A stretch of 64,000 bases of DNA from Chloroflexota bacterium (GCA_030603665.1 JAUVXJ010000013.1:23910-87909); one strand, 5' to 3'; counted from the first letter of the stretch, positions 412 to 16,213 are shown. Notes: generated by a model from the sequence alone, not told the origin. Made by a program: numbers and translations.

Positions 412-555
412 GTCTCTCCTCCAGACGTATCCTGTGTACCCTGCCTCGTCCTCATCGAGATTCTTCCGAAGTACCATAGCCAGTTTATCAGAGAATCTGC
501 GCCCTGTCAAGTTGTTCCGCTTCACATACTATTACGCAACGGGCTATTCCTTGTC

Positions 556-1684
556 AAGCCAAGCACAACACCCGTTCCAGCTCCATTGCCGTATTTGCGA
601 CCCACACGCCCAGGCGTGCAGCTACTAAATGCGGCAGAGCATCCAGGCTGACCGAGCAAACAGTACCAGGCAGCCAACATAGTGGTGCCAGCCTGCAAGA
701 AGGAATTGCCGACTCGCGCCATCCAGCGTAGAATAGGCCGGTCTCACAGGCTACAGATGGACCACCAAGCTGAAGGATGCTCCACATGTCCTGGAGTGTT
801 GTCCACAACGTCCTCATGACTGGACCGCCCGGGGCCGGCAAGACTCTCATGGCGCGGTCCTTGCCTTCCATCCTGCCCAGCATGACCATCGAGGAAGCCC
901 TCGACGTGACCAAGATCTACTCTGTCTCGAGCCTGTTGCCTCCTGAGACCCCCCTCATCCGCCACCGTCCTTTCCGCGCCCCCCACCATACCATCAGCCA
1001 CGCGGGTCTCGTCGGCGGCGGCCAGTGGCCTCGCCCAGGGGAGATCAGCCTGGCCCACCACGGCGTCCTCTTCCTGGACGAGGTCCCAGAGTTCGGCACC
1101 CGGGTACTAGAGGTGATGCGCCAGCCCATGGAGGACAAGGTGGTCACCATCAGCCGGGCCCAGGGTACCCTCACCTTCCCAGCCAAGTTCACCCTGATAG
1201 GAGCCATGAACCCCTGCCCGTGTGGCTACTTCGGAGACCCTAGCCGGGAGTGCACCTGCGCCCTGTCCATGGTCAGCCGGTACCAGAAGCGCCTCTCGGG
1301 ACCTCTGCTGGATCGCATCGATATCCACATCGACGTACCCCGGGTGGATTATGAGAAGCTAACCGACGATCGTCTGGGCGAGCCGTCGGAGGCCATCCGC
1401 AAACGCGTGGAGAAGGCCCGCCGCGCGCAGCGCCAGCGCTTCGAGGGCACGCCAATGACCTGCAACGCAGACATGGGCCCGGCCGAGGTTAGAGAGTATT
1501 GCCAGGTTGACGACGCGGGAGGGAGCCTGCTGCGCGCGGCCATGGAGCAGCTGCAGATGAGCGCCCGAGCTTTTCACCGGGTGCTCAAGCTGGGCCGCAC
1601 CATCGCCGACCTGGCCGGGTCGGAGACCATCGAGACCGCCCACCTGGCCGAGGCTATCCAGTACCGGCCCAGGACGCACATGTA
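556..1684 (+). repeat. Direct repeat, copy 1 (about 1.13 kb), comprising a roughly 250-bp leader plus a truncated comM-like CDS. It pairs with 14126-15262.
   Basis: By eye the leader is about 80% identical to copy 2 and the CDS about 97%. Similarity begins at gtcaa(g/c)ccaagcacaacacccg and ends exactly at the stop codon. Confidence 0.85.
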
Positions 1685-2841: not shown

Positions 2842-3780
2842 ATGGAGGTCCTGACTGGTGTATTCATTGTCGCGCTCTATAGGACAATGGAGAAGATTTG
2901 GGAGAAGAGCTTCGACGCGGCGTGGGAGCCCGTAGACGACACATTGAAAGCCAGATTCACCATTTGGGCTGGAAGTGGCGACGAGCGGAAACGCCGCATC
3001 GCCTTCGGAAGGGCCGCAGGCAAAGCCCGGAACTTGACCCTGCTCAAGGCTGAGGACGATCCACTGCAGAGAGTGCAGACAGAGCTGGTTCTCAAGGTAC
3101 TAGACGAAGGGCTGACGGACAGCGCTGCTGAGGAGTTGGCTGAAGAAGCTGCCAAGCTCATACTTTTCTCGGAGGACCCAGACATCGCTCGCATGACGAC
3201 ATACTGCCAAGAGCGCCTGAAGTGGGATGTGCTATGGTCTGGGGGTGAGCGCCCAGAAAGCAACGCCGTAACAGCCGTCTTAACTGCATTTCTGGACAAC
3301 CTGCGGGGATCGTTGCTGGACCAGGAGATCTACCGTGACGTTATGCACGACAAAGAACTGCTGGGGTTGCTGGGGAAGATAGCGCATGACCAACACCGCA
3401 CCGCAGAGGCCACGGTTCGGTGGTTGGAGGCGTCTGAGGACGCGGGACCGGCACCGGCCAGCATTGTGTGTGCGAAGGCTGTTAGTAGAGCCTCAATGCA
3501 AGGGGCAAGACTACTTGACGCCTCCAGCCAAAGACCTTTGCCACGAAGATGTCGTAGCCGCCGTTGTAGGTTCTGTCGAAGGCCCCGGGCGTCGTTGGAA
3601 AGCCTGAACACTCAGTGTGACCGGTCACATATGCATCACCCCCGGTATCCACAGCAATGCCGAAGGCAACGGACCAGCACCAGCTGCCACCCAGCCATTG
3701 GCGGAATACCAGGTCTGTTCCAGCCTCATTCAGCTTCGCCACGAAAGCCATGGCGTAGCCCGGCCCGGCAGAACCCGTGA
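2842..3780 (+). CDS. Hypothetical protein. The 3' end is uncertain, because the reading frame runs 300 nt into the convergent SBBP gene.
   Basis: It is a long ORF with coding-like composition over 2842 to about 3480. It has no NTPase or other recognisable motif. The last roughly 100 codons are Arg/Cys/Pro-rich junk, antisense to real SBBP repeats. Confidence 0.3.
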   Translation: MEVLTGVFIVALYRTMEKIWEKSFDAAWEPVDDTLKARFTIWAGSGDERKRRIAFGRAAGKARNLTLLKAEDDPLQRVQTELVLKVLDEGLTDSAAEELAEEAAKLILFSEDPDIARMTTYCQERLKWDVLWSGGERPESNAVTAVLTAFLDNLRGSLLDQEIYRDVMHDKELLGLLGKIAHDQHRTAEATVRWLEASEDAGPAPASIVCAKAVSRASMQGARLLDASSQRPLPRRCRSRRCRFCRRPRASLESLNTQCDRSHMHHPRYPQQCRRQRTSTSCHPAIGGIPGLFQPHSASPRKPWRSPARQNP

Positions 3781-5725
3781 TGTATGCCGAGCCCCTCTGA
3801 TCCACATCAATCGCCCCGGGCCATGAGCAGACTCGCTGTCCCAGGTATTGCCATCCCATGAAGGTGCTGTATACCAGGCCCGTACCATTGCTGTTCAACT
3901 TCGTCACGAAAGTATCAAGATCCCATTCGTCCTCACCCGCGTAGGTCCTGCAGAATGCTCCAGGCGTGGTCGGGAAGTCGAAAGAGCTCGTATAGCCAGA
4001 GACATAGGCTTCGCCTGCTGAGTTAGCGGCGACCCCGCCCCCAAAATACGAGTCGACGCCATCATTGTAGCTTCCTCCCAGCAATGTGCAGTACTCGAGA
4101 TCAGTGCCAGAAGGGTTCAGCTTGGCCACAACAGCGTCACTCTCACCATCCCGCGTTCTGTCGAAGGCACCGGTAGTTGTGGGGAACGTCGTCGAGCGCG
4201 TCCAGCCTGCCACATAAGCCGACCCTGTGGGATCCACCGCAACTCCCAAGGCTTCGTCGAAGTCGCTTCCTCCCAGAAACGTGCTGTAGACGAGATCGCT
4301 TCCGCTGGGGTTCAGCTTGGTGATGAAGAAGTCGGCGGTACCTCCGTTGTACGTGCTGTCATAGGCGCCAACCGTTGTGGGGAATCCAGAGCCCGCCCGG
4401 CCCGCCACATACGCGGAGTTGTCGTCGCCTATCGCGATCGAGAATCCTGTGCCGCCGCCGAGCGAAGTGCTGTAGACTAGGTCGCTTCCACTGGGATTCA
4501 GCTTCGCCACGAAGGCACCGCTCCCCGTTGCGTATGCCCCCGGTGTGGTTGGGAAGTCGGACGAGCCCGAGCCAACGACGTAGGCGGCGCCCGAAGCATC
4601 GACCGCTATGTCGTAGCTACGGTCGTCTCCCGACCCGCCGAGAAGGGTGCTGTAGACGAGAGCCGTGCCGTTCGGATTCAGCTTGGCCACGAAGACATCT
4701 AATCCTCCTCCATGGCTCGGGTCAAAGGAACCAGGAGTGGTGGGGAAGCCCGACGAGTATGTCTCGCCCGCCACGTAGGCAGCGCCAGAACCATCGACGG
4801 CAACCACCGCGCTTTGTGCCACTGGATCCGGCCACGGCTCGCCCACCGTGCCAAGGAAGGTGCTGTAGAGAAGACTGAACGAGCCCTCTGCCAGATGGGC
4901 GTCGCTACCACTCGGAACCCTGTCGGTGAATGGAGACAGGATCTCGAAGCTTCCTTCTCCGCGCTGGTAGATGCAAGGTTCGGCACTGACGTCGAACTGC
5001 TCGACTGACAACAAAGGCAAGGCCAAATCACCCAGCGTAGTACCCACCAGCAAGTGATCGGTGTCCGTCTGCACCCCAGTTGCACCATCCAGCCGCAGTC
5101 GAACAGCACTACTGTCGGAGTCCGGAGCCATGGCTGCGCGCAGCATCAGCTGACCATTCTCGCTGCTGACCTCAAGATCAATGCCAGGGTACAGGTCTTT
5201 GTAGCGCACACCGGCCCAGGCTGCTACTCCTATGTGCCACTCAGACGGTGCGTCACCGGTCAAATAGGATACGAGAGTGTCTTGCCTATTGAAGCCGACG
5301 AGTGCAGGATGAGGGTTGGCACCAACGAAGGTGACCTTGAGGCTCACGCCACGCAACTCTGCGGCCGCACTCTCCGCCGACCGATTGAAGAGCTCTCGCG
5401 ATGCGCCAAGACCTACCGAAGCACGAGAGGGCCGCGTGAGCGAGAGCCACATCGCATTCTCGGTAAGGGACAAGGACGCTCCGTTACCGACCGCTTGGAA
5501 CCGCACCTGGGGATCATACTGGCCAGCATTCTCCACGAACGCGGACAGCACAACGCTAGGTAGGCCGGTCACCTCCGCGCGGGGAGTTCGAGAGGTGTTA
5601 CCGGACTGGACGGCACTGGGAGGCTGCTCCATTGTGCGCGAGCGTGCTGCTGACCAGACCGCTGGGCACGAAGCCACGAGCAACGCGAGCGCAAAGAGGA
5701 ACCTAGGCAATCGTCTCAGCTCCAT
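3482..5725 (-). CDS. Secreted SBBP (beta-propeller repeat, PF06739-like) repeat protein
   Basis: It has an N-terminal signal peptide, MELRRLPRFLFALALLVASCPAVWSAA. About 8 copies of ...G.AYV.G.T.S.DFPTT.GA.D.......D.FV.KLN..G..L.YST.LGGS... continue through to the C-terminus. Confidence 0.7.
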   Translation of the reverse strand: MELRRLPRFLFALALLVASCPAVWSAARSRTMEQPPSAVQSGNTSRTPRAEVTGLPSVVLSAFVENAGQYDPQVRFQAVGNGASLSLTENAMWLSLTRPSRASVGLGASRELFNRSAESAAAELRGVSLKVTFVGANPHPALVGFNRQDTLVSYLTGDAPSEWHIGVAAWAGVRYKDLYPGIDLEVSSENGQLMLRAAMAPDSDSSAVRLRLDGATGVQTDTDHLLVGTTLGDLALPLLSVEQFDVSAEPCIYQRGEGSFEILSPFTDRVPSGSDAHLAEGSFSLLYSTFLGTVGEPWPDPVAQSAVVAVDGSGAAYVAGETYSSGFPTTPGSFDPSHGGGLDVFVAKLNPNGTALVYSTLLGGSGDDRSYDIAVDASGAAYVVGSGSSDFPTTPGAYATGSGAFVAKLNPSGSDLVYSTSLGGGTGFSIAIGDDNSAYVAGRAGSGFPTTVGAYDSTYNGGTADFFITKLNPSGSDLVYSTFLGGSDFDEALGVAVDPTGSAYVAGWTRSTTFPTTTGAFDRTRDGESDAVVAKLNPSGTDLEYCTLLGGSYNDGVDSYFGGGVAANSAGEAYVSGYTSSFDFPTTPGAFCRTYAGEDEWDLDTFVTKLNSNGTGLVYSTFMGWQYLGQRVCSWPGAIDVDQRGSAYITGSAGPGYAMAFVAKLNEAGTDLVFRQWLGGSWCWSVAFGIAVDTGGDAYVTGHTECSGFPTTPGAFDRTYNGGYDIFVAKVFGWRRQVVLPLALRLY

Positions 5726-6023
5726 CCCTGACCTCCTTCACGCGGACGTCGCGTTTCCGCGGTGCCGCTCCTTGCAGGCGAAGCAAAACGGCCTCGCTGA
5801 GATGACGCGCCGCAAGTCGGCAGATGGGTCATCAGCAGGATCCGCCTGTCACACGCAGGATGCGGCCCTCCGGCGACCGATTCCCTTGTGGGCTAGGTCC
5901 GCAGCGGTCTGGTGCGCATTCGCTGCAACAGATGCTGGATCGTAAGCTATCGATATCGAGACCTCTTCTGCCGCGCGCACTGGTACAGGGGTGAACTGCT
6001 CGGTTAAGGGATTGACAACAGGT

Positions 6024-9000
6024 TCATCGTGTCGCCTTGTGCAGTCCTCGCCAGAGTTGCACCCCCGCCGGCAGTACCAACACTAGGGGCAGAGCAGCGC
6101 CCCAACACGGCCCGCGTCCGCCAGTCGTCGGCGTTGGCTCCAAAGCAGCTTCGGCAACCTCCGTCGTAGCCTCCGTGGCAACGCCAACATCCACGTCGCC
6201 TGTCAACTTCCCTCCATCCCCTGTCAACACGAAAGCTGCCCAGTAGTATGGATGCGGATACTCTGCTCTCACATCAATCTGTGCCTGACGTAGCGCCTCC
6301 GCTTTGCCCATCCCGGCACGAAGATGAGTGTAGAACCGCTCCATCAGCAGCGCCGTCGCCTCGTCATCGACGCTCCACAGGCTGGCAAGCACGCTCGGCG
6401 TTCCAGCGTAGAGGAACGCTCGACTCAAACCCACCACTTCATCACCTGCGCTCAACGTGCCGAGTTGCGTCTGGCACGCGCTGAGGACTACCAGATTGGT
6501 GGCTGCCGTCAAGTCTAGTCCGTAGACTTCGTGGACTTCCAGACGGCCGTCGTTTTGGGTATCTTCTGCCAGATAGATTGTGCTGAACAAGGGGTTGTTG
6601 CGGTCGTATTCGCCATGGGCTGCGATATGCAAGACACCTGCACCGCCACCCTGTGACCACACCACACTTTCCGTAGCGTCTTCTCCCGTCATGGCCTGCG
6701 TCCCGAAAAGTGCTGCGATGCTTATGGCTTCCTGTTCGGCAAAGCGCAACGCAGGCATTGGCTCGACAATGGTTGGATTGCCTAGCGCTAGCAGGTTGCC
6801 AGATTCGGACTTGCATTTCCCCTTAACGAAGGGCAGTAGGCTGGCACTGGGTAGGGTGAACAAGCCATGGTCGTCGCTCAGATACCTGTCGCCATCGGTG
6901 AGGGCGGCAAAGGGAAGGTAGTGGAGCACGTTGTGGGGGACAATCCCGAGCATCGAGGTGGTCAGATATGCTCTCAGCGGGGAGATGAGCCAGGCATAGA
7001 GTTGTTGCAGACTGGCCGGGTGGGGATCCTCCAGCCTGGCGAAATCCCGGAAGATTGTGATGGTCTCCGTTAGGTCTTCGCGACTGATGTCCAGCGCTAG
7101 GGCATTGAAGGTATCATGGGTGATGATGAAGGCCAGTGTTCGTCCTTCAGTTACGAAGTATTCGACCAATGTGGTGTTGGCGTCAAGCAGACCTTGGATC
7201 TCAGCCAACGAGGCCACGTCGACGCTGACGAGCGAGGCGAGCTCAGAGCTCTGTAGTTTGAGTTCGATCAGCAGGGCTTCGTAGTCTGCTTCAAGAGTGA
7301 TGAGCTCAGCTTGCGTGTCCATGATCGCACTAGTGTCCCGTTGCTCACGGGGACGATTGCGAAGAGTCACTAGTTGGGCGCGTCGCGCTGCGATTTCCGC
7401 GCGAAGCGTCTGCTCTTGGTCTAGCAGTATACGGGGGGCTCCGGCTCGGAAGTCTACCAGGCCACCCGCAAGTTGGTCGAGGAGTGCCCTTGCTCGAGCA
7501 CGCTCCGCATACTCGAAGGCCTCTTGGAGGCGACCCTCTTCCCAAAGGAGGTTGACGAGACGATCGTACACCGCGACCTCTTGAGCTGCATAGGTTCCCT
7601 TCAGTTCTGGGATCCCGATCTCTTTCTGAATGGACTCGACGACATCAGCGGCCTGCTGGTAGAAGGCGATCGCCTCTGAAACAAGACCGAGTTGCTCGTA
7701 TGCCAACCCAATCTTGTTGAGTGTCTTTCCTTCCCCCCTCCGGTCGCCGATCTCCTGTTGGATAGCCAGCGCCCGCTGGTGATAGTCAAGAGCCTGCTCA
7801 TTTTCGCCCAAGCTCCCGTAGACTGAGCCGATGTTGTCGAGCGTGTATCCTTCCCCGGCCCGGTCGCCGATCTCCTGTTGGATAGTCAGCGCCCGCTGGT
7901 GGTAGACCAGAGCCTGCTCATGTTGCCCCAGGGTCCAGTAGATCGTCCCAATGTTGTAGAGCGTGTTTCCTTCCCCGGCCCGGTCGCCGATCTCCTGTTG
8001 GATAGCCAGCGCCCGCTGGTAGTAGTCCAGAGCCTGCTCGTATTGGTTCGGACTCTCGTCGGCCCCGATGCTGTCCCGCGTGGCTGACTCGTCCGTCTGG
8101 TCGCCAGTGTCCTCGAGAGCATCATCGTGCCGGTGGTATACTAGACCAATGTTGTTGAGCGTCGTTGCTTCGCCCATCCGGTCGCCGATCTCTTGTTGGA
8201 CAGCCAGCGCCCGCTGATAGTACTCCAGCGCCCGGTCGTCTTGCCCCAAGTAGTCATAGACCAGACCGATGTTGTTGAGCCCGGATCCTTGTCCCAGCCG
8301 GTATCCAATCTCCTGGTAGACGGCCAGCGCCTGATGAAAGTAGACCAGCGCCTCCTCGTATTGGCCCAGGCTCCAGTAGACTGCCCCAGTGTTGTTGAGC
8401 GTCAGTGCTTCGTCCGCCGGGTCCTCGATCTCCTGTTGGATGGCCAGCGCCCGCTGGTGGTAGTCTAGAGCCCGCTCGTATTGGCCCAGGAGCCAGTAGA
8501 CTACACCGGTGTTCTGGAGCGTGGCTCCTTCCCCCGCCCGGTCTCCGATCTCCTGTCGGATGGCCAGCGAGCGCTGGTGGTAGTCAAGGGCATGATCGTA
8601 TCGGCCTAAGCTCCGGTAGACTGCCCCAATTGCGTTGAGCGCCCTTCCTTCTCCCGCGCGGTCGCCGATCTCCTGTTGGATAGCCAGCGCCTGCTGGTGG
8701 CAGTCCAGAGCCTCCTCATTCTGGCCCAAGTTCCCGTAGACTGTCCCGATCCTGTCGAGCACCGTTCCTTCGTGCCGCCGGTCGCCGATCTCCCGTTGGA
8801 TAGCCAGCGCCCGCTGGTAGTAGTCCAGAGCCTCCTTGTATTGGCCTAGGCTTGAGTAGATCGCCCCGATGTTATGCAGCGTTGCTCCTTCTCCCTCCCG
8901 GTCGCCGATCTCCTGTTGGATGCCCAGCGCGCGCTGGCAGTAGTCCAGAGCCTGCTCGTACTGGCCCACGCTCGCGTAGAAGGCAGCAATGTTGGCGAGC

Positions 9001-9389
9001 GTTGTTCCTTCTCCCTCCCGATCGCCGATCTCCTGTTGGATGCCTAGCGCCCGCTCGTAGTAGTCCATCGCCTGCTCATCCTGCCCCAGGTCGTAGTGGA
9101 CCACCCCGATGTCGTTCAGCGCCTCTGCTTCCCCCGCCCGGTCTCCGATCTCCTGTCGGATAGCGAGCACAGCTTCCAACGTACTAAGTGCTCCCTGGTA
9201 GTCTGCGTCATTATAGAGGCCGACGGCTTCCTCATAGAGGGCATCGGCCTGTGCCTGCGGATCATCCTGAGTGGCTGGAGTAGCGGCGATTTGGGCTGGA
9301 AACAGGGCCAGAACTAGCGTCGCGACCAGCAGCCAGGCACCTATGCAATTGACCCACAACTTCCTCAGACTACTGCCGCTCCTCTTCAC
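6024..9389 (-). CDS. Exported TPR-repeat protein with a C-terminal CHAT (caspase-like) protease domain and a C-terminal hydrophobic anchor-like tail
   Basis: It has a signal peptide, MKRSGSSLRKLWVNCIGAWLLVATLVLALFPAQIAA. About 13 TPR_12-like 40-42 aa units follow (YEQALDYYQRALAIQQEIGDRAGEG.TLNNIG.VY). It then has a CHAT core, with the His-Cys catalytic dyad in LHIAAHG...LVVLSACQT...PYYWAAFVLTGD. It ends in GGRGPCWGAALPLVLVLPAGVQLWRGLHKATR. Confidence 0.85.
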   Translation of the reverse strand: MKRSGSSLRKLWVNCIGAWLLVATLVLALFPAQIAATPATQDDPQAQADALYEEAVGLYNDADYQGALSTLEAVLAIRQEIGDRAGEAEALNDIGVVHYDLGQDEQAMDYYERALGIQQEIGDREGEGTTLANIAAFYASVGQYEQALDYCQRALGIQQEIGDREGEGATLHNIGAIYSSLGQYKEALDYYQRALAIQREIGDRRHEGTVLDRIGTVYGNLGQNEEALDCHQQALAIQQEIGDRAGEGRALNAIGAVYRSLGRYDHALDYHQRSLAIRQEIGDRAGEGATLQNTGVVYWLLGQYERALDYHQRALAIQQEIEDPADEALTLNNTGAVYWSLGQYEEALVYFHQALAVYQEIGYRLGQGSGLNNIGLVYDYLGQDDRALEYYQRALAVQQEIGDRMGEATTLNNIGLVYHRHDDALEDTGDQTDESATRDSIGADESPNQYEQALDYYQRALAIQQEIGDRAGEGNTLYNIGTIYWTLGQHEQALVYHQRALTIQQEIGDRAGEGYTLDNIGSVYGSLGENEQALDYHQRALAIQQEIGDRRGEGKTLNKIGLAYEQLGLVSEAIAFYQQAADVVESIQKEIGIPELKGTYAAQEVAVYDRLVNLLWEEGRLQEAFEYAERARARALLDQLAGGLVDFRAGAPRILLDQEQTLRAEIAARRAQLVTLRNRPREQRDTSAIMDTQAELITLEADYEALLIELKLQSSELASLVSVDVASLAEIQGLLDANTTLVEYFVTEGRTLAFIITHDTFNALALDISREDLTETITIFRDFARLEDPHPASLQQLYAWLISPLRAYLTTSMLGIVPHNVLHYLPFAALTDGDRYLSDDHGLFTLPSASLLPFVKGKCKSESGNLLALGNPTIVEPMPALRFAEQEAISIAALFGTQAMTGEDATESVVWSQGGGAGVLHIAAHGEYDRNNPLFSTIYLAEDTQNDGRLEVHEVYGLDLTAATNLVVLSACQTQLGTLSAGDEVVGLSRAFLYAGTPSVLASLWSVDDEATALLMERFYTHLRAGMGKAEALRQAQIDVRAEYPHPYYWAAFVLTGDGGKLTGDVDVGVATEATTEVAEAALEPTPTTGGRGPCWGAALPLVLVLPAGVQLWRGLHKATR
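7560..9200. repeat. Intragenic tandem repeat array (about 120-126 bp units) encoding the TPR units of the CHAT protein
   Basis: The near-identical 40-mer ccggtcgccgatctcctgttggatagccagcgcccgctggt recurs about every 120 bp (for example near 7741, 7861, 7981, 8656, 8776, 8896, 9016). One divergent unit with an acidic insertion lies near 8040-8160. Confidence 0.8.
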
Positions 9390-10471
9390 TGGCTCAAATC
9401 CCCGAGACGTTCCTCCAACTCGGTCACTCGTTGCGCATCCCCCAAGACTTCGTATCCAGCAAGCGCCCGCTCCAGCCAGCGTACTGCGTGGTACACATTC
9501 CCCATCTTTCCATACATTTCCCCTAATCCAGCCTGCGCCGCCGCTTGCCCCTCTACATCTCCGGCGGCCTCCGCCAGCTCGACGGCCGTCGAGTATCGAG
9601 CCTCAGCCTCAAGGCTGACTCCAATGTGCCGATAGAGATCGCCCAACGTCCGGTAAACGGCCGCGGACTGGCTCCCAGCCTGCACCAACCTTTCGAGAAT
9701 CTCGATCGCTTCGGCAGTGAGATCATAGCCAGTGTAGAGCTGAGCCAAGCCAAAGGCTTCCGCGTCAGGTGTCAATCCCAGGTCAGCGAGTCTGCCAGCA
9801 GCGGCCCGCACGCGTTGGGCGTCATTGGCATTGAGCAAGGTGAGCCCCAGTCCAGGCACATCTTCATCCTGAGAAGATGCGCCATTGTCGGCTTCAACAA
9901 TGAGTAGATAGGTAGCCCCAGATTCGAGGGCTGGCTCACCCGGATAGGTCACACCAGACTCATCCGTCATCGTGCTCCAAATGATCCGGCCCGTGTTGGT
10001 GCCCTTGATCTGCACACTATAGATGGATGCACCTGGGATTTCATTCCAGCGCAGTATCGGCGTACCACTCAGGAGCTGAGTTCTCCGTGGGCTGATGATG
10101 TAGGGAATAGAGGGATCACCTACGCCGCGAGTACTGCCAAGCCCGCTTCCTTCACGCATTCGCGCAGTTTCCTCTGGCGCCGGGCAACCATTCATCACGC
10201 CAGATACCTTGCCGGCGAGCGGAGACCAGGCGGTAAGGTCGTCACAGAGGACAATTGCCCTCGCCTCGCTCGTCGGTTTCAGCAGGTCCCCGCGATGGAG
10301 CACTGCGCCAAAGGCCGTACGGTGGTAGTCCGACCACACCCCGCGCCTCAACCACACTTCGCCCTCGGCCACTATCAGCAGATTGACACTGCTGTCAGCG
10401 GGGGCAGCAGGAGTTGGCTGACTACAAGAGCCAGCAAGAGCTATCGGAATCAGTATCAGTGCTATCGACAA
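9386..10471 (-). CDS. Secreted hypothetical protein with a C-terminal TPR-like helical region, in the CHAT operon (4-bp ATGA overlap with the downstream gene)
   Basis: It has an N-terminal hydrophobic signal, MSIALILIPIALAGSCS. The middle looks beta-rich and the C-terminal helical region is Ala/Leu-rich. Its stop overlaps the CHAT gene start. Confidence 0.55.
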   Translation of the reverse strand: MSIALILIPIALAGSCSQPTPAAPADSSVNLLIVAEGEVWLRRGVWSDYHRTAFGAVLHRGDLLKPTSEARAIVLCDDLTAWSPLAGKVSGVMNGCPAPEETARMREGSGLGSTRGVGDPSIPYIISPRRTQLLSGTPILRWNEIPGASIYSVQIKGTNTGRIIWSTMTDESGVTYPGEPALESGATYLLIVEADNGASSQDEDVPGLGLTLLNANDAQRVRAAAGRLADLGLTPDAEAFGLAQLYTGYDLTAEAIEILERLVQAGSQSAAVYRTLGDLYRHIGVSLEAEARYSTAVELAEAAGDVEGQAAAQAGLGEMYGKMGNVYHAVRWLERALAGYEVLGDAQRVTELEERLGDLSQ

Positions 10472-10497
10472 AGATGCTGCGCGTCTGATCGTTCCTC

Positions 10498-11700
10498 CTA
10501 TTCTGCTTCCAGGCGTTGGCTAGCGAATCCGATCCATGCATCTTCATCTGGGTTGCGTGCACTGGCAAGTCTCAGGCAGTCTTCCCATTCAGGCCGAGCA
10601 CGTGCTGCGTCGCCCAGGCCTTCCAGCACCTGGGCGAGCAAACAGTGAGCAGGGGCCTCGTCCTTCGCCAGATCAATGGCGCTCCGTAGGTGATACTCTG
10701 CCTCGTCATAGCGAGCTTGGCCCAGTCGTGCCCAACCCAGGTTCTTGAGCATGTCGTACCTCACCTGGTCCTCCTCGGCGAGGTCTAGACCGCTCAACAG
10801 CAGGGAGACAGCTGCCGCATAGTCTCCGTCCAGCACGTATAAGCGAGCGAGGTTGTTGTAAGCCGCGTCGAGCCCGCCTTGCATCGCAATCCTGTACTCC
10901 GTGCGGGCAAGGTCGAGATCGTGCAGATCTTCGTATAGCAGCCCTAGGTTGTAGTGAGCTTCCGCGTAGTCAGGCCTGAGTTTGATGGCCCGGGAGTAGT
11001 CAGATTGGGCGCTATCCCATCGACCGCCACGGTAGTTCTCCAGACCGCGGTTGTTGTAGGAGACCGCGATCCTTGGCAAGGAGGAACGGAAAAGCATCAG
11101 GCCAAGCAAGAGTACCATCGTGAGGCCAAGCTCGGTTTCCTGCCACGCACTCCTAGGAATACGCAGACTCATGAGTATCCGCTCGATCGCCTTCCGCCCA
11201 GATGTACTCAGCGCGCCCCCAGCTACCAGCATGGTCACCACAATCTGAGCGATGACCGCAAAGACCCCCAGCGCATCTGGACCGTCAGCTAAGAACCTCC
11301 AGGAGATATCCACTATCAGGCTCAAGGATGCTATCAGGCACAGAACAGCCAGGACGCTCCACAGCCAATCGAGGCGTGCCGCCCGCTGAGGCTGCTTGGA
11401 GGTCTCAAAGAACCACCACCATGCCTCGGGTGATGGATTCAACGTGCTGCGCCATTGCGACAGTCCCGCCACCTGGGCGATAGACTCAGATTGCTTCCTC
11501 AGCCGGTCATCTAGCTCGACAAGGGTGATCAGGGTGTGCGCGGAGTCCTGCGTCTTGTCAGTCAATCTTGCGTGAACGGCATCGCGAGCGACAAGGGCTT
11601 CAAGAGCTTGCTCGGCTGATGGATGGGGGGCAGCGTCTTCCAGCACAGTGAGCTTGCTGCCATAGCGTCTGAGGGCACGCTCCAACTGCGAGGCAGTCAT
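10498..11700 (-). CDS. Membrane-anchored TPR-repeat protein, first gene of the CHAT operon
   Basis: It has three predicted TM segments (LWSVLAVLCLIASLSLIV, VFAVIAQIVVTMLVAGGAL, LGLTMVLLLGLMLF). C-terminal TPR motifs follow (AIKLRPDYAEAHYNLGLLYEDL...). It lies 26 bp upstream of the next gene on the same strand. Confidence 0.6.
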   Translation of the reverse strand: MTASQLERALRRYGSKLTVLEDAAPHPSAEQALEALVARDAVHARLTDKTQDSAHTLITLVELDDRLRKQSESIAQVAGLSQWRSTLNPSPEAWWWFFETSKQPQRAARLDWLWSVLAVLCLIASLSLIVDISWRFLADGPDALGVFAVIAQIVVTMLVAGGALSTSGRKAIERILMSLRIPRSAWQETELGLTMVLLLGLMLFRSSLPRIAVSYNNRGLENYRGGRWDSAQSDYSRAIKLRPDYAEAHYNLGLLYEDLHDLDLARTEYRIAMQGGLDAAYNNLARLYVLDGDYAAAVSLLLSGLDLAEEDQVRYDMLKNLGWARLGQARYDEAEYHLRSAIDLAKDEAPAHCLLAQVLEGLGDAARARPEWEDCLRLASARNPDEDAWIGFASQRLEAE

Positions 11701-12378
11701 TTGCTACCTCCTTCAAGGTAGGGAGACTGCATCCTTCGACTGACGTGTGAGCTCATTCCCATGTGCGGGCAACTTCCCTACTCTAGGGACGGCGGTCACT
11801 TGGCTGCCGGAGTAGAGCCGAAGTCACTGGATGATAGCACAAGTAGAGAGAGAGGGCAAGCCAGGTTGCCTATAGTGGAACGAGGCCCCGCTGTTGAGGA
11901 GAGAATGTACCAGAAGGTTTGATCAACCTCTGTATCTCGCAACGGGGCCTCAAGGGGATTCTAGCAGCAACGCCCATCGTCGGCAATCGACTCCCTCTCG
12001 ATACGCTTGACCTCTCGCTGAAACAACAGTGCTGACGCTGCACGAGCGGCTTGGTGTTCCGGGTTCAACTGTAGCACCGCTTGTAGAAAGCACCACTTGT
12101 CCTCAACGTCGTCGGTCTCTGCTGCCAGCCACAGCCAGGCGTGGATCACAAGGGGGCGGGGGCGGCGGACGAATCGGACCTTGAGTTTGGCCGCAGTGGT
12201 ACGGAGCTGGTCAAGCTTGGGAAGGCGGGAGCATCACCGATAGTGGAACCGTTGACCATGCCCAGCGGACGCGGCAAGAATCTCAGATCGCACGGGATGT
12301 CTTGGGGCGGAATGACAGATCACTACAGCGTTCAGGGTATCCCTCGGTCCTCACGGCAGCCGGGGCATGTTGCCTGCG

Positions 12379-12678
12379 CTAGATCAGGCCTTGACTCAGT
12401 TTCTCGTGCAGCATCTCCTCGTAGTCGGGGCCGGTAAGAGTGCAATCGACAAGGTGGTCGAACTCGTCATGGTTGAGCTGAAGATCCTTCCTGACAGATT
12501 CCTGAAAACCGATTCCCCACTCGCCACGCCCCTTTGGGACTCGGACCTTGAAGCGTTTCCGTCCCTCTAGGACAACCCAGTAGATCTCCTCTTTGCCGGA
12601 TCTGTACTGGCCCGGTACCTTCTTGTCCACCGCCGATCGGACTTTCTGCTTACGATATCTTTTCGCTCTTGGCGACAT
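12379..12678 (-). CDS. Small basic hypothetical protein (possible toxin-like partner), last gene of a 3-gene module
   Basis: It is an ORF with an Lys/Arg-rich N-terminus, MSPRAKRYRKQKVRSAVDKK. It lies immediately downstream of the HicB-like gene with an overlap, and I recognise no family. Confidence 0.35.
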   Translation of the reverse strand: MSPRAKRYRKQKVRSAVDKKVPGQYRSGKEEIYWVVLEGRKRFKVRVPKGRGEWGIGFQESVRKDLQLNHDEFDHLVDCTLTGPDYEEMLHEKLSQGLI

Positions 12679-13252
12679 AGTCTCGAAGTACCCTCGACCA
12701 AGCCGTGGGGAGCTTGCCAAGTTCTTCCGGGTCGGCCTCAGTCAGTTCCTCGTATAGAAGTATGACTTGGTCCTTGAGGTCATTGACTGCCTCAGCAGGC
12801 GTGGTGCCCCAGCCGCGGGCCTCCACTTCCAGGAACGTCGCGACCGCTTCGTCGCGGTACTCTTCGACCACGACGGGAATCGGATGCCGGAGGGAGTATG
12901 ACGATGAGTTTAGATCAACGATCGCGGTGCTGGTCACGACCGGTCTACTCAGCAATGCTTCGCTTAGCTCCAATACTGCACCCTCCAGCCTCTCCAACCT
13001 GTCTTCGAGGTTGGCCGGCGTGCGGGTGCCAAGCTCCCCCGTGCGCATCATGGAGAGCCACTGCTGGCCGAGTGTGGGCCACTCCTGAGAGTACTCTAGT
13101 GGTAGGATGTCCGTCGACAAGGCAACCGGATCCTCCCAATGACCCTCGTCGTACTTCAACACCAAGCGTACCGATTCGCCAATCTTCAGGGTGCCGCGGG
13201 CGATTGTGGGGTCGTCCTTCCACGCACCGTCCAGTTCTTTCCACTCACTCAT
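12650..13252 (-). CDS. Hypothetical protein with a C-terminal HicB-like (UPF0150 / RNase-H-fold antitoxin-like) domain
   Basis: The C-terminus IPVVVEEYRDEAVATFLEVEARGWGTTPAEAVNDLKDQVILLYEELTE matches the HicB pattern. The likely true start is MSEWKELDGAW, which gives an 8-bp overlap with the upstream gene. Confidence 0.5.
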   Translation of the reverse strand: MSEWKELDGAWKDDPTIARGTLKIGESVRLVLKYDEGHWEDPVALSTDILPLEYSQEWPTLGQQWLSMMRTGELGTRTPANLEDRLERLEGAVLELSEALLSRPVVTSTAIVDLNSSSYSLRHPIPVVVEEYRDEAVATFLEVEARGWGTTPAEAVNDLKDQVILLYEELTEADPEELGKLPTAWSRVLRDYVAKSEKIS

Positions 13253-13895
13253 CTGGCCCACCAAACTCCTTCGAAATACCCGCCGCGAATCGCAGGACGT
13301 CACTAGGCAGCTCTGGCGTGAATCTTGACAAGTACTCAAACGATATCAAATGTCTCACCGTGTCGGCCTTAGGTGGTGCATGATCGATGATTATGTCATA
13401 CAAGTGTGCTTCGTCTCGCACCTTGGCCAAGTGCACCCCTCGGATATCGGTGTAGGGCAATCTCGTTGCGTGACCGACTACAAGAGGCATGGGAACACAC
13501 GAGACATATTCGCTCGCTCGATATCGGAAACTGGCTCGGCAGTCGAACGCGTGCTCCTCAGGCATGTCAGAAAGCATGTGTAGCATGTCAAGCACGGGTC
13601 TTGTCCCCTCGGGCACTGGCACAGATGCCGTCGTGCCAACCGAATAGGTCAAAACAAGCCGATATTCTTCACCTCCTGGTTTGACCTGGACAATGCTACC
13701 CAAGCAGGCGTGTTCGACCCGACTCCTCCGGTACTCAGTATAGAAGAAAGCGACGCTTCTGCCTGAGGAGGCTCTCACCGCGTATTCGACCAGTAGGTCG
13801 GTGAAGGATGCGGAATCGAGCTCTAATAGGGCCTCAAGGGCCAATTCCGTAGCAGATGATCGTACTAGGTCGAGTCTTGAGGGGTCGCTAGCCAT
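13245..13895 (-). CDS. Hypothetical protein, first gene of the 3-gene module
   Basis: It is a 216-aa ORF with coding-like composition. Its stop overlaps the next gene's start. I recognise no motif. Confidence 0.4.
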   Translation of the reverse strand: MASDPSRLDLVRSSATELALEALLELDSASFTDLLVEYAVRASSGRSVAFFYTEYRRSRVEHACLGSIVQVKPGGEEYRLVLTYSVGTTASVPVPEGTRPVLDMLHMLSDMPEEHAFDCRASFRYRASEYVSCVPMPLVVGHATRLPYTDIRGVHLAKVRDEAHLYDIIIDHAPPKADTVRHLISFEYLSRFTPELPSDVLRFAAGISKEFGGPDE

Positions 13896-14125: not shown

Positions 14126-15262
14126 CTCCAAGAATGTCAACCCAAGCACAACACCCGCTCCAGCTCTACCGCCGTATTTGCGCTCCACACGGGCAGGCGT
14201 GTGGCTACTGCGGTAAGGCACCCAAGCTGACCAAGCCCACACTATGAGGCAGCCAAAATGTGGTGCCAGCGTGGCAGAACGAATTGCCGCCCCGCTCGAT
14301 CCAACGTACAATGGGTTGGCCTCACTGACTATAGATGTATCACCAAGCTGAAAGGCGCTCCAGATGCGCTGGAGTATTGTCCACAACGTGCTCATGACTG
14401 GACCGCCCGGAGCTGGCAAGACTCTCATGGCGCGGTCCTTGCCTTCCATCCTGCCCAGCATGACCATCGAGGAAGCCCTCGACGTGACCAAGATCTACTC
14501 CGTCTCTGGTCTGTTGCCCCCTGAGACCCCCCTCATCCGCCACCGTCCTTTCCGCGCCCCCCACCATACCATCAGCCACGCCGGTCTCGTGGGCGGCGGC
14601 CAGTGGCCTCGCCCAGGGGAGATCAGCCTAGCCCACCACGGAGTGCTTTTCCTGGACGAGGTCCCAGAGTTCGGCACCCGGGTGCTAGAGGTGATGCGCC
14701 AGCCCATGGAGGACAAGGTGGTGACCATCAGCCGGGCCCAGGGTACCCTCACCTTCCCAGCCAAGTTCACCCTGATAGGAGCCATGAACCCCTGTCCGTG
14801 TGGCTACTTCGGAGACCCTAGCCGGGAGTGCACCTGCGCCCTGTCCATGGTCAGCCGGTACCAGAAGCGCCTCTCGGGACCCCTACTGGACCGCATCGAC
14901 ATCCACATCGACGTGCCGCGGGTGGATTATGAGAAGCTAACCGACGATCGTCTGGGCGAGCCGTCGGAGGCCATCCGCAAGCGCGTGGAGAAAGCCCGCC
15001 GCGCACAGCGCCAGCGCTTCGAGGGCACGCCAATGACCTGCAACGCAGACATGGGCCCCGCCGAGGTTAGAGAGTATTGCCAGGTCGATGACGCGGGAGG
15101 GAGCCTGCTGCGGGCAGCCATGGAGCAGCTGCAGATGAGCGCCCGAGCCTTCCATCGCGTGCTCAAGCTGGGCCGCACCATCGCCGACCTGGCCGGGTCG
15201 GAGACCATCGAGACCGCCCACCTGGCCGAGGCTATCCAGTACCGGCCCAGGACGCACATGTA
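14126..15262 (+). repeat. Direct repeat, copy 2 (pairs with 556-1684)
   Basis: See copy 1. Confidence 0.85.
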
Positions 15263-15263
15263 A
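14364..15263 (+). CDS. comM: YifB/ComM-family AAA+ ATPase, truncated form, second copy
   Basis: The protein is identical to copy 1 apart from the first 6 residues and one S/G change. Nearly all nucleotide differences are synonymous. Confidence 0.8.
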   Translation: MRWSIVHNVLMTGPPGAGKTLMARSLPSILPSMTIEEALDVTKIYSVSGLLPPETPLIRHRPFRAPHHTISHAGLVGGGQWPRPGEISLAHHGVLFLDEVPEFGTRVLEVMRQPMEDKVVTISRAQGTLTFPAKFTLIGAMNPCPCGYFGDPSRECTCALSMVSRYQKRLSGPLLDRIDIHIDVPRVDYEKLTDDRLGEPSEAIRKRVEKARRAQRQRFEGTPMTCNADMGPAEVREYCQVDDAGGSLLRAAMEQLQMSARAFHRVLKLGRTIADLAGSETIETAHLAEAIQYRPRTHM

Positions 15264-15508
15264 GTCTGTCGGCTTGTTGCGACGCTCTGGATGCGCGATG
15301 AGGAGCATCGCCAACTCGCGCAGACAGGAGTGTTACTACTGGTGCGTTCGATGGGCCTAGCCCAGGGGGTTCTGCCCGAGAGGGTGGCAATCTCAGTTCC
15401 GCAATCTCATTGGGAGGGGCGGCGTCAACCCAGAAACGGCAGATTTCTGGACCTCTGCGCAGTATCGCGGAGACAGATGAGGAGGTTGGATCACCAAGGA
15501 GGAGAGAG

Positions 15509-16213
15509 ATGAGGAGGAAATCGCTGCTCGTAGCAGCATCGGTGTTGGCCCTGTGGATACTGCTAGTGACGCCAGCGTTCGCTCAGGGTCCATCGCCTGA
15601 GGAGAAACTACAGGAACTCGCTTCCCAGGCTGGGCCGGCCCAATTCGTGATGTGTGGGCTCGATTTCTGCGCCTACGTCACCAACGAGGACAACCTGAAC
15701 AACGCCGGTGTGGACACCGCCGACAATGACATGGGATGGAATCGGCCGCTGTACGATGCCATATATCGCACCTGCCAGGGCAATGCCAAGCATCCCATCG
15801 AGTCCACCATCGACGTGCCCAGCGCGCCCTTCAACACCGACGCCACACTCTCCCTCAACGCATTGGACACCGGCATCCTGTGGCCGGATATTCAACGCGT
15901 CGAGTTAAATGGATCGTTGTGGGAACCGGAGATAGAGTACGTCCACACCAATCCAGACGGCCGGACCTGGGTCTGGTGGCAAGGCCACATCGACCCCGCT
16001 CACGTACGAGTGGCCCCCAGCCAGAATCTGGTGAGGGTATACCTGAAGAGTGGGCGATGCATCCAGCTCGGGGGCAGCTTCATTCTCATGACCGACCACG
16101 CCATCGTCCTCGAGGAAGAGTTCGTGCCCGAGCCCGGTACCATCGTCCTCCTAGGTAGCGGGATGGCTGGGCTGGCAGGATATGCCAGCTGGCGCTGGAG
16201 GACGAGAAGGTAG
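15509..16213 (+). CDS. PEP-CTERM sorting-domain secreted protein
   Basis: It has the signal peptide MRRKSLLVAASVLALWILLVTPAFA. The C-terminus VPEPGTIVLLGSGMAGLAGYASWRWRTRR shows PEP, a TM segment and an Arg-rich tail. An RBS ggagg lies upstream of the ATG at 15509. Confidence 0.75.
   Translation: MRRKSLLVAASVLALWILLVTPAFAQGPSPEEKLQELASQAGPAQFVMCGLDFCAYVTNEDNLNNAGVDTADNDMGWNRPLYDAIYRTCQGNAKHPIESTIDVPSAPFNTDATLSLNALDTGILWPDIQRVELNGSLWEPEIEYVHTNPDGRTWVWWQGHIDPAHVRVAPSQNLVRVYLKSGRCIQLGGSFILMTDHAIVLEEEFVPEPGTIVLLGSGMAGLAGYASWRWRTRR

Follow-up and report, generated by a model that had tools for sequence, protein, structure and literature searches.

Three adjacent genes on the minus strand of a 64,000-nucleotide stretch of Chloroflexota bacterium DNA (GCA_030603665.1, JAUVXJ010000013.1:23910-87909; the whole stretch is referred to as the window) were found to be a local variant of a widespread gene cassette, in which a constant transmembrane (TM)-TPR part, a protein of the g2 family and an exported CHAT protein are combined with an exchangeable cytoplasmic head. 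These genes are g1 (component 1; 10498-11700, 400 amino acids, with an ATG start and GGAGG 8 nucleotides upstream), g2 (component 2; 9386-10471, 361 amino acids counted from a TTG) and g3 (component 3; 6024-9389, 1121 amino acids, with a GTG start). An original prediction, made from the DNA alone, had described them as an operon for an exported TPR-CHAT caspase-like protease with a membrane-TPR and a secreted partner, and the open reading frames (ORFs) lie exactly where it placed them, all on one strand. Both junctions were re-read from the sequence: 26 bp separate g1 from g2, and g2 overlaps g3 by 4 bp (GTGA), the GTG start of g3 lying on the stop codon of g2, which is consistent with translational coupling. 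Since a candidate sigma-70-like promoter (TTGCCC-17-TATCAT with an extended TG, a consensus match only; 11831-11859, minus strand) is found about 130 nucleotides upstream of g1 and a sequence scan indicated no convincing internal terminator in the g1-g2-g3 stretch, the operon reading is reasonable and was upheld.

Of the trio, g2 has the greatest specificity and was therefore chosen as the search probe. This search retrieved 105 homologues of 345 to 400 amino acids from Anaerolineae/Ardenticatenaceae and from cyanobacteria (Moorena, Microcoleus, Coleofasciculus, Nostoc and Tychonema), with 35-65% identity across the two phyla. A g2 relative is encoded in 134 of 185,579 GTDB species representatives, as judged by a search built on a 13-sequence alignment, and a g2 profile compared with 1.84 billion cluster representatives yielded 1,312 proteins (50%-identity clusters) at E ≤ 1e-30. 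For g1, more than 120 full-length homologues were found with the whole protein as a query; its N-terminal 223 residues alone gave only three fragments in this word-based search, so the full-length query was used. The nearest relatives of all three genes come from Chloroflexota/Anaerolineae metagenome-assembled genomes (MAGs), and the order seen in the window (a TM-TPR protein, a g2 homologue and a TPR-CHAT protein) is also present in Moorena bouillonii and one Anaerolineae MAG.

Gene neighbourhoods were compared over 80 species-level loci, 76 of which were evaluable for the gene upstream of g2. In 74 of these 76, the gene directly upstream ends in a TPR module of about 190 residues that is homologous over its full length to residues 206-400 of g1 (E from 1e-22 to 1e-101), and a basic stretch and a hydrophobic TM helix nearly always stand directly before this module. 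Of the 66-68 loci with enough flank, 47 have a same-strand CHAT ORF no more than 2.5 kb downstream of g2, and if both sides of g2 are taken together, a CHAT ORF of the same strand lies within 3 kb in 50 of 66 loci. Furthermore, a metagenomic protein of 788 amino acids (P0330) is a natural fusion of a complete g1-type protein (residues 6-424, E = 1e-72) with a g2-type part (residues 449-786). Other arrangements were seen as well: in loci L005, L021 and L039 the CHAT gene precedes component 1 (CHAT-g1-g2), the linkage being kept and the order not strictly fixed, while P0253 is a WD40 propeller fused to g2 and P0267 is g2 fused to a COP23 domain.

These comparisons bear on the simplest alternative, namely that there is no functional unit at all, and that the genes encode repeat-rich proteins adjacent by chance or a cytoplasmic TPR-CHAT protein with a mis-called start. 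TPR and CHAT proteins are indeed very abundant in these phyla, locus L002 has four more CHAT genes nearby, and the g2 protein annotated by NCBI (P0001, 323 amino acids) carries no signal peptide. However, the three families keep their order and strand in both phyla, the g1-g2 fusion exists, g2 shares 4 bp with g3, orthologues conserve their signal peptides and the localisation signals co-vary among the three proteins (see below), and we regard this explanation as scarcely credible.

The putative protease, g3, begins with a canonical Sec signal peptide and about 12 TPR_12-type repeats (Pfam, E = 4.6e-103); a helical linker leads from these to the CHAT domain, and the protein ends in a TM anchor and a basic tail. 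The CHAT domain (PF12770; residues 792-1058, 6216-7016, minus strand) was matched over the whole profile (positions 2-289 of 289) with E = 1.5e-70 and 238.4 bits, against a cutoff of 24, and both of its motifs are present, HIAAHG (H925, AAHG) and LSACQT (C972, SACQT), so that the domain is intact, as had been claimed. The His925 and Cys972 codons occupy positions 6615-6617 and 6474-6476. This dyad, whose absence from an alignment had been named as grounds for giving up the prediction, is unchanged in 48 of the 48 CHAT proteins encoded near g2 homologues, and likewise in a separate alignment. Judged by its sequence, g3 is an active-looking caspase-like (clan CD) cysteine protease, with an intact dyad and a predicted activity.

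The signal peptide of g3 (residues 1-36; 9282-9389, minus strand) reads KRSGSSLRK, IGAWLLVATLVLALF and PAQIAA followed by T, that is, a basic n-region, a 15-residue hydrophobic core and the motif P-x-x-I-A-A before T, with cleavage predicted between IAA and TP. Equivalent signals with a P-x-x-V-x-A cleavage motif are present in the orthologues of loci L002, L004 and L006. Because it is conserved in orthologues, the signal is not an artefact of the start codon, a possibility that had been raised with the prediction; moreover, the next in-frame Met, at residue ~108, falls within the TPR array. The array itself (7590-9257, minus strand) has a DNA period of 120 nucleotides, or 40 residues (repeat family D1), and its copies are 60-74% identical to one another. 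An acidic, probably disordered insertion of about 35 residues, HRHDDALEDTGDQTDESATRDSIGADESPNQ, breaks the array at residues ~420-455 (~8025-8130 in the window).

The hydrophobic-plus-basic tail at the other end of g3, pointed out in the original prediction, is real. This segment, GGRGPCWGAALPLVLVLPAGVQLWRGLHKATR (6027-6122, minus strand), is a membrane anchor or a possible sorting signal of the layout G-x-C, TM, W-x-R/K, and its hydrophobic stretch with basic residues after it, GPCWGAALPLVLVLPAGVQLWRGLHKATR, recurs in the Chloroflexota relatives of loci L002, L004, L006 and L021. Examples among Chloroflexota CHAT proteins are GPCWGAALPLV...LWRGLHK, GLCWGAALPV...HRRR and SGCLSLILPLV...LWQRK, the L004 copy being located at 8360-8455, and among the 90 window ORFs of at least 150 amino acids the g3 tail is the only one of its type. 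It resembles a Gly-Cys/TM/basic sorting signal in its sequence; no NCBIfam sorting-signal model (PEP-CTERM, MYXO-CTERM/GC_trans_RRR, GlyGly-CTERM and others) matched the g3 or the L002 tail at E ≤ 10. Pfam indicated no two-partner-secretion (TPS)/haemagglutination N-terminal domain in the window's g3.

The g1 protein starts with a helical head of about 100 residues (g1N), which is followed by a WWW motif, three TM helices (residues 111-137, 143-163 and 183-206) and a C-terminal module of six TPRs (residues 208-399). This order was seen in an AlphaFold2 model (predicted local distance difference test score, pLDDT, 86), with which hydropathy agrees, and the original description of the first gene as three TM helices plus TPRs was therefore correct. 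The membrane region (residues ~105-206; 11083-11388, minus strand) contains conserved polar residues (D131, R135 and GG.LT..G), and the constant TPR module (residues ~207-400; 10501-11082, minus strand) is recognised by the motifs YNNLARLYI, KNLGWAR, AHCLLAQ and W..C...EDxW. The output of the g1N-headed form would be a helical/3-TM domain, possibly a membrane effector or an adaptor. Scans of the g3 tail, g1N and the N-terminal half of g2 gave nothing consistent, and isolated sub-threshold STAS and TIR matches to single sequences were judged to be chance.

For g2, the AlphaFold2 model (pLDDT 91, predicted template modelling score 0.87) comprises a small beta domain (residues 30-95) with two Cys residues, C76 and C96, that are invariant in the homologue alignment, a Fn3/DUF928-like beta sandwich (residues 121-212) that begins with IPYIISPRxT, the most conserved motif of the family, and a C-terminal part of four TPR-like hairpins. 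TPR_12, in the C-terminal part, is the sole Pfam match of g2, and the N-terminal half of the protein gave nothing consistent in NCBIfam or Pfam. DUF928 (PF06051) did not match the window's g2 at E ≤ 0.1; 10 of 50 g2 homologues match it weakly (best E = 0.0031, below the gathering threshold), a few match fn3, and the searchable literature revealed no described function for DUF928. The inter-domain loop (residues 100-120, pLDDT ~60; 10112-10174, minus strand) holds a near-invariant Arg, R115, in the context x-[TSP]-R-[GA]. Since this Arg is conserved in an exposed and otherwise variable loop, the sequence suggests R115 as a candidate site of protease recognition or cleavage. The clan-CD proteases separase, gingipain R and metacaspases cleave after Arg.

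The export signal of g2 (10424-10489, minus strand) was read from the sequence and ends in the lipobox IALAGS-C16, which meets a permissive PROSITE-type lipobox pattern; by pattern inspection, the Chloroflexota homologues carry LATAAC, LSLSAC, LLGC or LGAC, and a lipoprotein or signal peptidase I (SPase-I) signal is present in nearly all of the 105 homologues. The second protein had been called secreted, and it is indeed of an exported kind, but as a lipoprotein with the lipobox-like LAGSC and not as a freely secreted protein. With respect to its start, the TTG at 10471 is 22 nucleotides from GGAGG and an in-frame ATC at 10489 is 4 nucleotides from it. The codons ATC AGA CGC at 10489 read I-R-R and align with the MKRR n-region of the homologue P0002, which begins MKRRVAISILLALILATAACG. 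Translation of g2 probably begins at this ATC and not at the TTG, which would add the basic n-region I-R-R; the alignment points to either a non-canonical AUC start or an ATG-to-ATC assembly error. The NCBI call, by comparison, starts at an internal GTG and so lacks the lipoprotein signal.

The part of component 1 in front of the membrane is variable. Among 74 component-1 proteins, the head is a CHAT domain in 26, of the g1N type in 25, a Ser/Thr kinase in 17, EAD4 in two and a helix-turn-helix (HTH) domain in one. The partner CHAT proteins fall into three classes: (i) the signal peptide-TPR-CHAT type of the window, which goes with g1N heads, (ii) another signal peptide-TPR-CHAT type, ending in ...FILIGNGL, which goes with kinase heads, and (iii) proteins of 1,700-2,400 amino acids with an N-terminal TPS domain and a C-terminal CHAT domain, which go with CHAT heads. 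Sister cassettes of Microcoleus and Coleofasciculus encode CHAT proteins with an N-terminus of the NxxGxxxxxLFHSF type. Just upstream of kinase- or CHAT-headed cassettes, at 4228-5841 in L037, 4616-6250 in L050 and 4771-5934 in L069, we observed genes for STAND NTPases of the NB-ARC/NACHT type, one of them with a LuxR-type HTH, or for a DUF1822 protein. The STAND genes in L037 and L050 are of the NB-ARC type, and such neighbours hint that the cassette may be tied to immunity or cell death based on STAND proteins.

Where do these proteins act? In the kinase-headed type, the TPR module of component 1 is placed outside, because the kinase head is cytoplasmic and exactly one TM helix lies between the two; g1, with its N-terminus inside and three TM helices, has the same topology, so its TPR module would be outside too. 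N-terminal signal peptides are found on nearly all partner CHAT proteins and nearly all g2 homologues. The style of anchoring follows the type of envelope: in Chloroflexota, g2 is a lipoprotein and several CHAT partners (in the window, L004, L006 and L021) end in a TM segment with a basic tail; in cyanobacteria, g2 and CHAT are soluble periplasmic types with SPase-I signals and no tail. Three further loci, L008-L010 (Coleofasciculus/Coleofasciculaceae and an uncultured MAG), have EAD4 or HTH heads, a component 1 without a TM helix and a g2 without a signal; the adjacent TPR-CHAT protein of L008 lacks a signal as well, and in L009 and L010 there was no adjacent CHAT protein that could be scored. 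From their sequences, all three loci seem to carry a cytoplasmic form of the cassette. That the localisation signals switch together argues for joint action of the three proteins in one compartment, and we consider it probable that the trio of the window acts together outside the membrane. The signal peptide of g3, the signals of its orthologues and the co-varying partner signals all place the TPR-CHAT protein, as a prediction, outside the cytoplasmic membrane. Thus, the idea of an extracytoplasmic, TPR-scaffolded protease system holds: signals are conserved, the dyad is invariant, and the neighbourhood comparison indicated that homologues from the same kind of operon are overwhelmingly predicted to be exported and not cytoplasmic.

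The data support a physically and functionally linked trio outside the cytoplasm that is built around an active-looking caspase-like protease and coupled, through one membrane protein, to a swappable cytoplasmic domain. This architecture suggests a transmembrane receptor or signalling module, or a conflict system as understood by Kaur et al. 2020 (PMC7159879), of which it has the expected layout. In the mechanism that we propose, g1, g2 and g3 would form a single extracytoplasmic, membrane-tethered complex. g1 would be an inner-membrane protein whose TPR module lies immediately against the outer membrane face and whose helical head and two extra TM helices face or span the cytoplasmic side. 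g2 would be a lipoprotein with two beta domains and a TPR domain, and g3 a TPR-CHAT cysteine protease that is exported by Sec and tethered to the membrane through its C-terminal anchor. A cue from the envelope or the extracellular space would activate this TPR-scaffolded protease, and the activated CHAT domain would cleave a partner, for which the Arg-containing flexible loop of g2 is the best candidate; alternatively, g2 may restrain CHAT. The TPR module of component 1 would read the resulting change and relay it through the membrane to the head. The sequences show that the genes are linked, which domains they encode, that the dyad is intact, that export signals co-vary and that g1 and g2 can be fused. 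It is inferred that the proteins form a complex, that g3 is proteolytic, what it cleaves, which way the signal runs and whether the system serves defence, kin conflict or the death of cells in filamentous bacteria. A protease-dependent signalling or conflict role outside the cytoplasm, with an outside-in direction favoured, is the most likely function in our view and has about an even chance of being right.

Several observations weigh against this proposal. A nearby CHAT gene is absent from about a quarter of the loci with enough flank. The g1N head matches no Pfam or NCBIfam family and has no recognisable output domain, and the start codon of g2 is ambiguous or non-canonical. Signal and TM calls were made by hydropathy and motif inspection and not with SignalP, LipoP or TMHMM. 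The invariant Cys pair of g2, considered for a time as a sign of a disulfide and hence of export, was dropped from the argument, as the cytoplasmic variants keep both residues. In the sublineage of TPS-CHAT proteins, CHAT occupies the toxin position of contact-dependent inhibition (CDI) proteins, which fits a different explanation discussed below. Finally, the TPR module of component 1 follows the TM helix without a linker, which makes juxtamembrane clipping of the DdvA kind unlikely, and with such cleavage unlikely the relay step of the mechanism is speculative.

The closest system described so far is DdvA, an anti-sigma factor of M. xanthus, which contains a periplasmic TPR-CHAT region and has been proposed to work as a signal-activated site-1 protease (PMC11506125). 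The location predicted for the cassette and its proposed logic are shared with DdvA. However, DdvA is a single polypeptide composed of a ZAS domain, one TM helix, a flexible linker and TPR-CHAT, has an ECF sigma partner and is restricted to Myxococcota (PMC11506125), whereas the window's cassette is split over three proteins, exports its protease separately through Sec and has g2 as an extra partner; it also lacks a ZAS domain, a sigma factor and the linker, and its outputs are g1N, kinase, CHAT or EAD4 heads. Because of this precedent, the premise of the original prediction that CHAT/TPR proteins are usually cytoplasmic overstates the oddity of g3: DdvA is periplasmic (PMC11506125), and CHAT proteins with a signal peptide or fused to a TPS domain are common in cassette loci. 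We also considered whether the cassette could operate by regulated intramembrane proteolysis in the manner of DdvA, with CHAT clipping the ectodomain of component 1 and a site-2 protease (S2P) freeing the g1 head as a cytoplasmic regulator. Such a mechanism has been put forward for DdvA, the one periplasmic TPR-CHAT protein described so far (PMC11506125), g1 has a conserved soluble N-terminal helical domain, and one component 1 bears an HTH domain as its head. Against it, g1 has three TM helices instead of one, the last of them runs into the TPR module without a flexible linker, and kinase and CHAT heads need no release in order to act. In addition, hidden Markov model scans revealed no anti-sigma domain in g1, g2 or g3, the last of which starts with a signal peptide of the cleavable type; no ZAS domain or sigma gene was found in the trio and ten other ORFs scanned between 777 and 18090, and no sigma-70 r2/r4 match in those ten ORFs or in the four genes at 3482-11700. 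We therefore hold this route to be quite improbable.

A more serious competitor is the possibility that CHAT is an exported weapon against neighbouring cells, or a maturation enzyme for surface or secreted proteins, with g2 as its periplasmic inhibitor, immunity protein or chaperone and component 1 regulating or positioning it from the inside out. The C-terminal end of TPS/CDI proteins is the usual position of a toxin, and it is there that many cyanobacterial cassettes put CHAT, in TPS (haemagglutinin-type) proteins of 1,700-2,400 amino acids. g2 is tightly coupled to the CHAT gene, in the window by the 4-bp overlap, and secreted proteins are encoded downstream in the window (an SBBP propeller), L004 and L002. 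Yet these downstream proteins are not conserved. Immunity genes usually lie behind the toxin gene and are small and hypervariable, whereas g2 stands in front of CHAT and keeps 35-65% identity between the two phyla. A chaperone or immunity role is hard to reconcile with heads of the kinase, CHAT and EAD4 types, the window's CHAT protein is anchored in the membrane by its C-terminus and not released, and there are cassette variants that appear wholly cytoplasmic. On balance, we consider the weapon or maturation role unlikely, though somewhat less so than intramembrane proteolysis.

The outside-in signalling proposal can also be extended into a complete protease-to-receptor pathway, in which a cue (from the envelope, a phage or non-kin cells) would lead CHAT to cut the Arg loop of g2, processed g2, as a pro-ligand-like protein, would bind the membrane-proximal TPR module, and the cytoplasmic head would be switched on. 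That head would be a kinase or another caspase, an adaptor of the death type that recruits STAND-NTPase effectors or, in the window, a novel helical/3-TM domain, and events outside the cell would be coupled to immunity or programmed cell death in filamentous, multicellular bacteria. This full version is improbable in our view. In the Spaetzle/Toll pathway of Drosophila, a secreted protease processes a pro-ligand, and the result is read by a receptor that crosses the membrane once and bears a death-fold, kinase or adaptor domain on its cytoplasmic side. If the proposed mechanism is right, the cassette would follow the same logic, as a functional analogy without any sequence or structural relationship.

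Among solved structures, the best match of g3 is Csx29 of the type III-E CRISPR system (Craspase), which also has TPRs followed by CHAT, and the CHAT profile is slightly nearer by sequence to Csx29 (E = 4e-9) than to DdvA (E = 2e-4). The Csx29 family model NF041237 matched g3 with E = 4.4e-11 and 42.4 bits against a cutoff of 300, so g3 does not belong to this family. Csx29 is kept inactive until its partner signals, a logic that we attribute to the cassette CHAT as well, but it is cytoplasmic, sits on Cas7-11/crRNA (CRISPR RNA) and cuts Csx30, whereas g3 has a signal peptide and an anchor. No cas genes lie beside g3, whose neighbours are g1, g2 and the SBBP gene, and Rfam indicated no RNA family, CRISPR repeat families included, in the window.

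There is also a resemblance to the NTP-dependent conflict systems of multicellular bacteria, which use EAD adaptors, and to the EACC1-caspase two-gene system (PMC7159879, PMC8195603). The cassette shares with them a bias towards filamentous cyanobacteria and Chloroflexota, caspase-superfamily peptidases, TPRs, kinases, EAD4, neighbouring STAND NTPases, membrane association and a plan in which variable effector or signalling domains are attached to a constant core. The cores of those systems (MoxR-vWA-VMAP, iSTAND, GAP1 GTPase and EACC1) are, however, absent, the core of the cassette being TM-TPR, g2 and an exported CHAT protein, predicted to be extracytoplasmic. In the EACC1-caspase system, a 5' gene encodes a variable N-terminus and a constant single-TM EACC1 domain, and a 3' gene encodes an N-terminal caspase and a variable C-terminus (PMC7159879); in the cassette, by contrast, the constant part is a 190-residue TPR module, CHAT is C-terminal, behind the TPRs, and g2 is a third constant gene. 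Text searches of Kaur et al. 2020 and 2021 (PMC7159879, PMC8195603) revealed no description of the cassette, and no paper on it or on TPS-CHAT proteins was found in the searchable literature. PADLOC, which has no model for the cassette, gave only generic TPR matches in the g1-g2-g3 region. Hence, the original remark that no described system with this exported three-gene architecture was known agrees with what we found in the searchable literature, but the trio represents one form of a large family of cassettes, with a constant extracytoplasmic part and swappable cytoplasmic heads. The domains belong to known kinds, and for a TPR-CHAT protein outside the cytoplasm there is one precedent; what is undescribed in the searchable literature is the three-component cassette, its plan of a constant ectodomain with a variable head, the g1N head and the g2 family beyond its weak DUF928 link.

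The surroundings of the cassette in the window were inspected as well. It lies in a segment of about 12.4 kb bracketed by direct repeats, one of 1133 bp on the left (552-1684, plus strand) and its 92% identical copy on the right (14135-15262, plus strand), so the repeat-bounded accessory segment reported earlier does exist. Each repeat makes up the 3' portion of a ComM/YifB-like gene of the Mg-chelatase family (ORF 777-1685 on the left, ORF 14364-15263 on the right) and ends exactly at its stop codon. The segment looks like an insertion into comM, for which the pattern is typical; no integrase or recombinase was found among the ORFs scanned. The SBBP beta-propeller gene (3482-5725), whose product is exported, adjoins the cassette, as had been noted. 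It was tried as a fourth component or a substrate and rejected, since no homologue occurs near any other cassette; it is a secreted neighbour and not a conserved partner. Several ORFs of uncertain coding status (113, 229, 216 and 62 amino acids; 12379-13895 and 11961-12149, minus strand) lie between the cassette and the right repeat. None had a homologue in 83 related loci, the 113-, 229- and 216-residue ORFs had no Pfam match, and the 229- and 216-residue ORFs no PADLOC match. Beyond the repeat, the product of the ORF at 15410-16213 (plus strand) is a secreted protein with a PEP-CTERM motif at its end, VPEPGTIVLLGSGMAGLAGYASWRWRTRR (PF07589), and because of it the organism probably has an exosortase system.

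CHAT caspase-like proteases are known as cytoplasmic switches, as in separase, Craspase and HetF. If our reading is true, a modular protease on the envelope side, wired to swappable kinase, caspase and adaptor heads, would extend bacterial protease signalling to the cell envelope, and the cassette would connect with the systems for conflict and cell death that have been predicted for multicellular bacteria. As the cassette family is large (1,312 clusters at 50% identity), includes genetically tractable hosts (Nostoc, Anabaena relatives and Moorena) and has kinase-headed variants that offer a readily assayable output, extracellular proteolytic signalling and the role of caspase homologues in filamentous bacteria would become open to direct tests.

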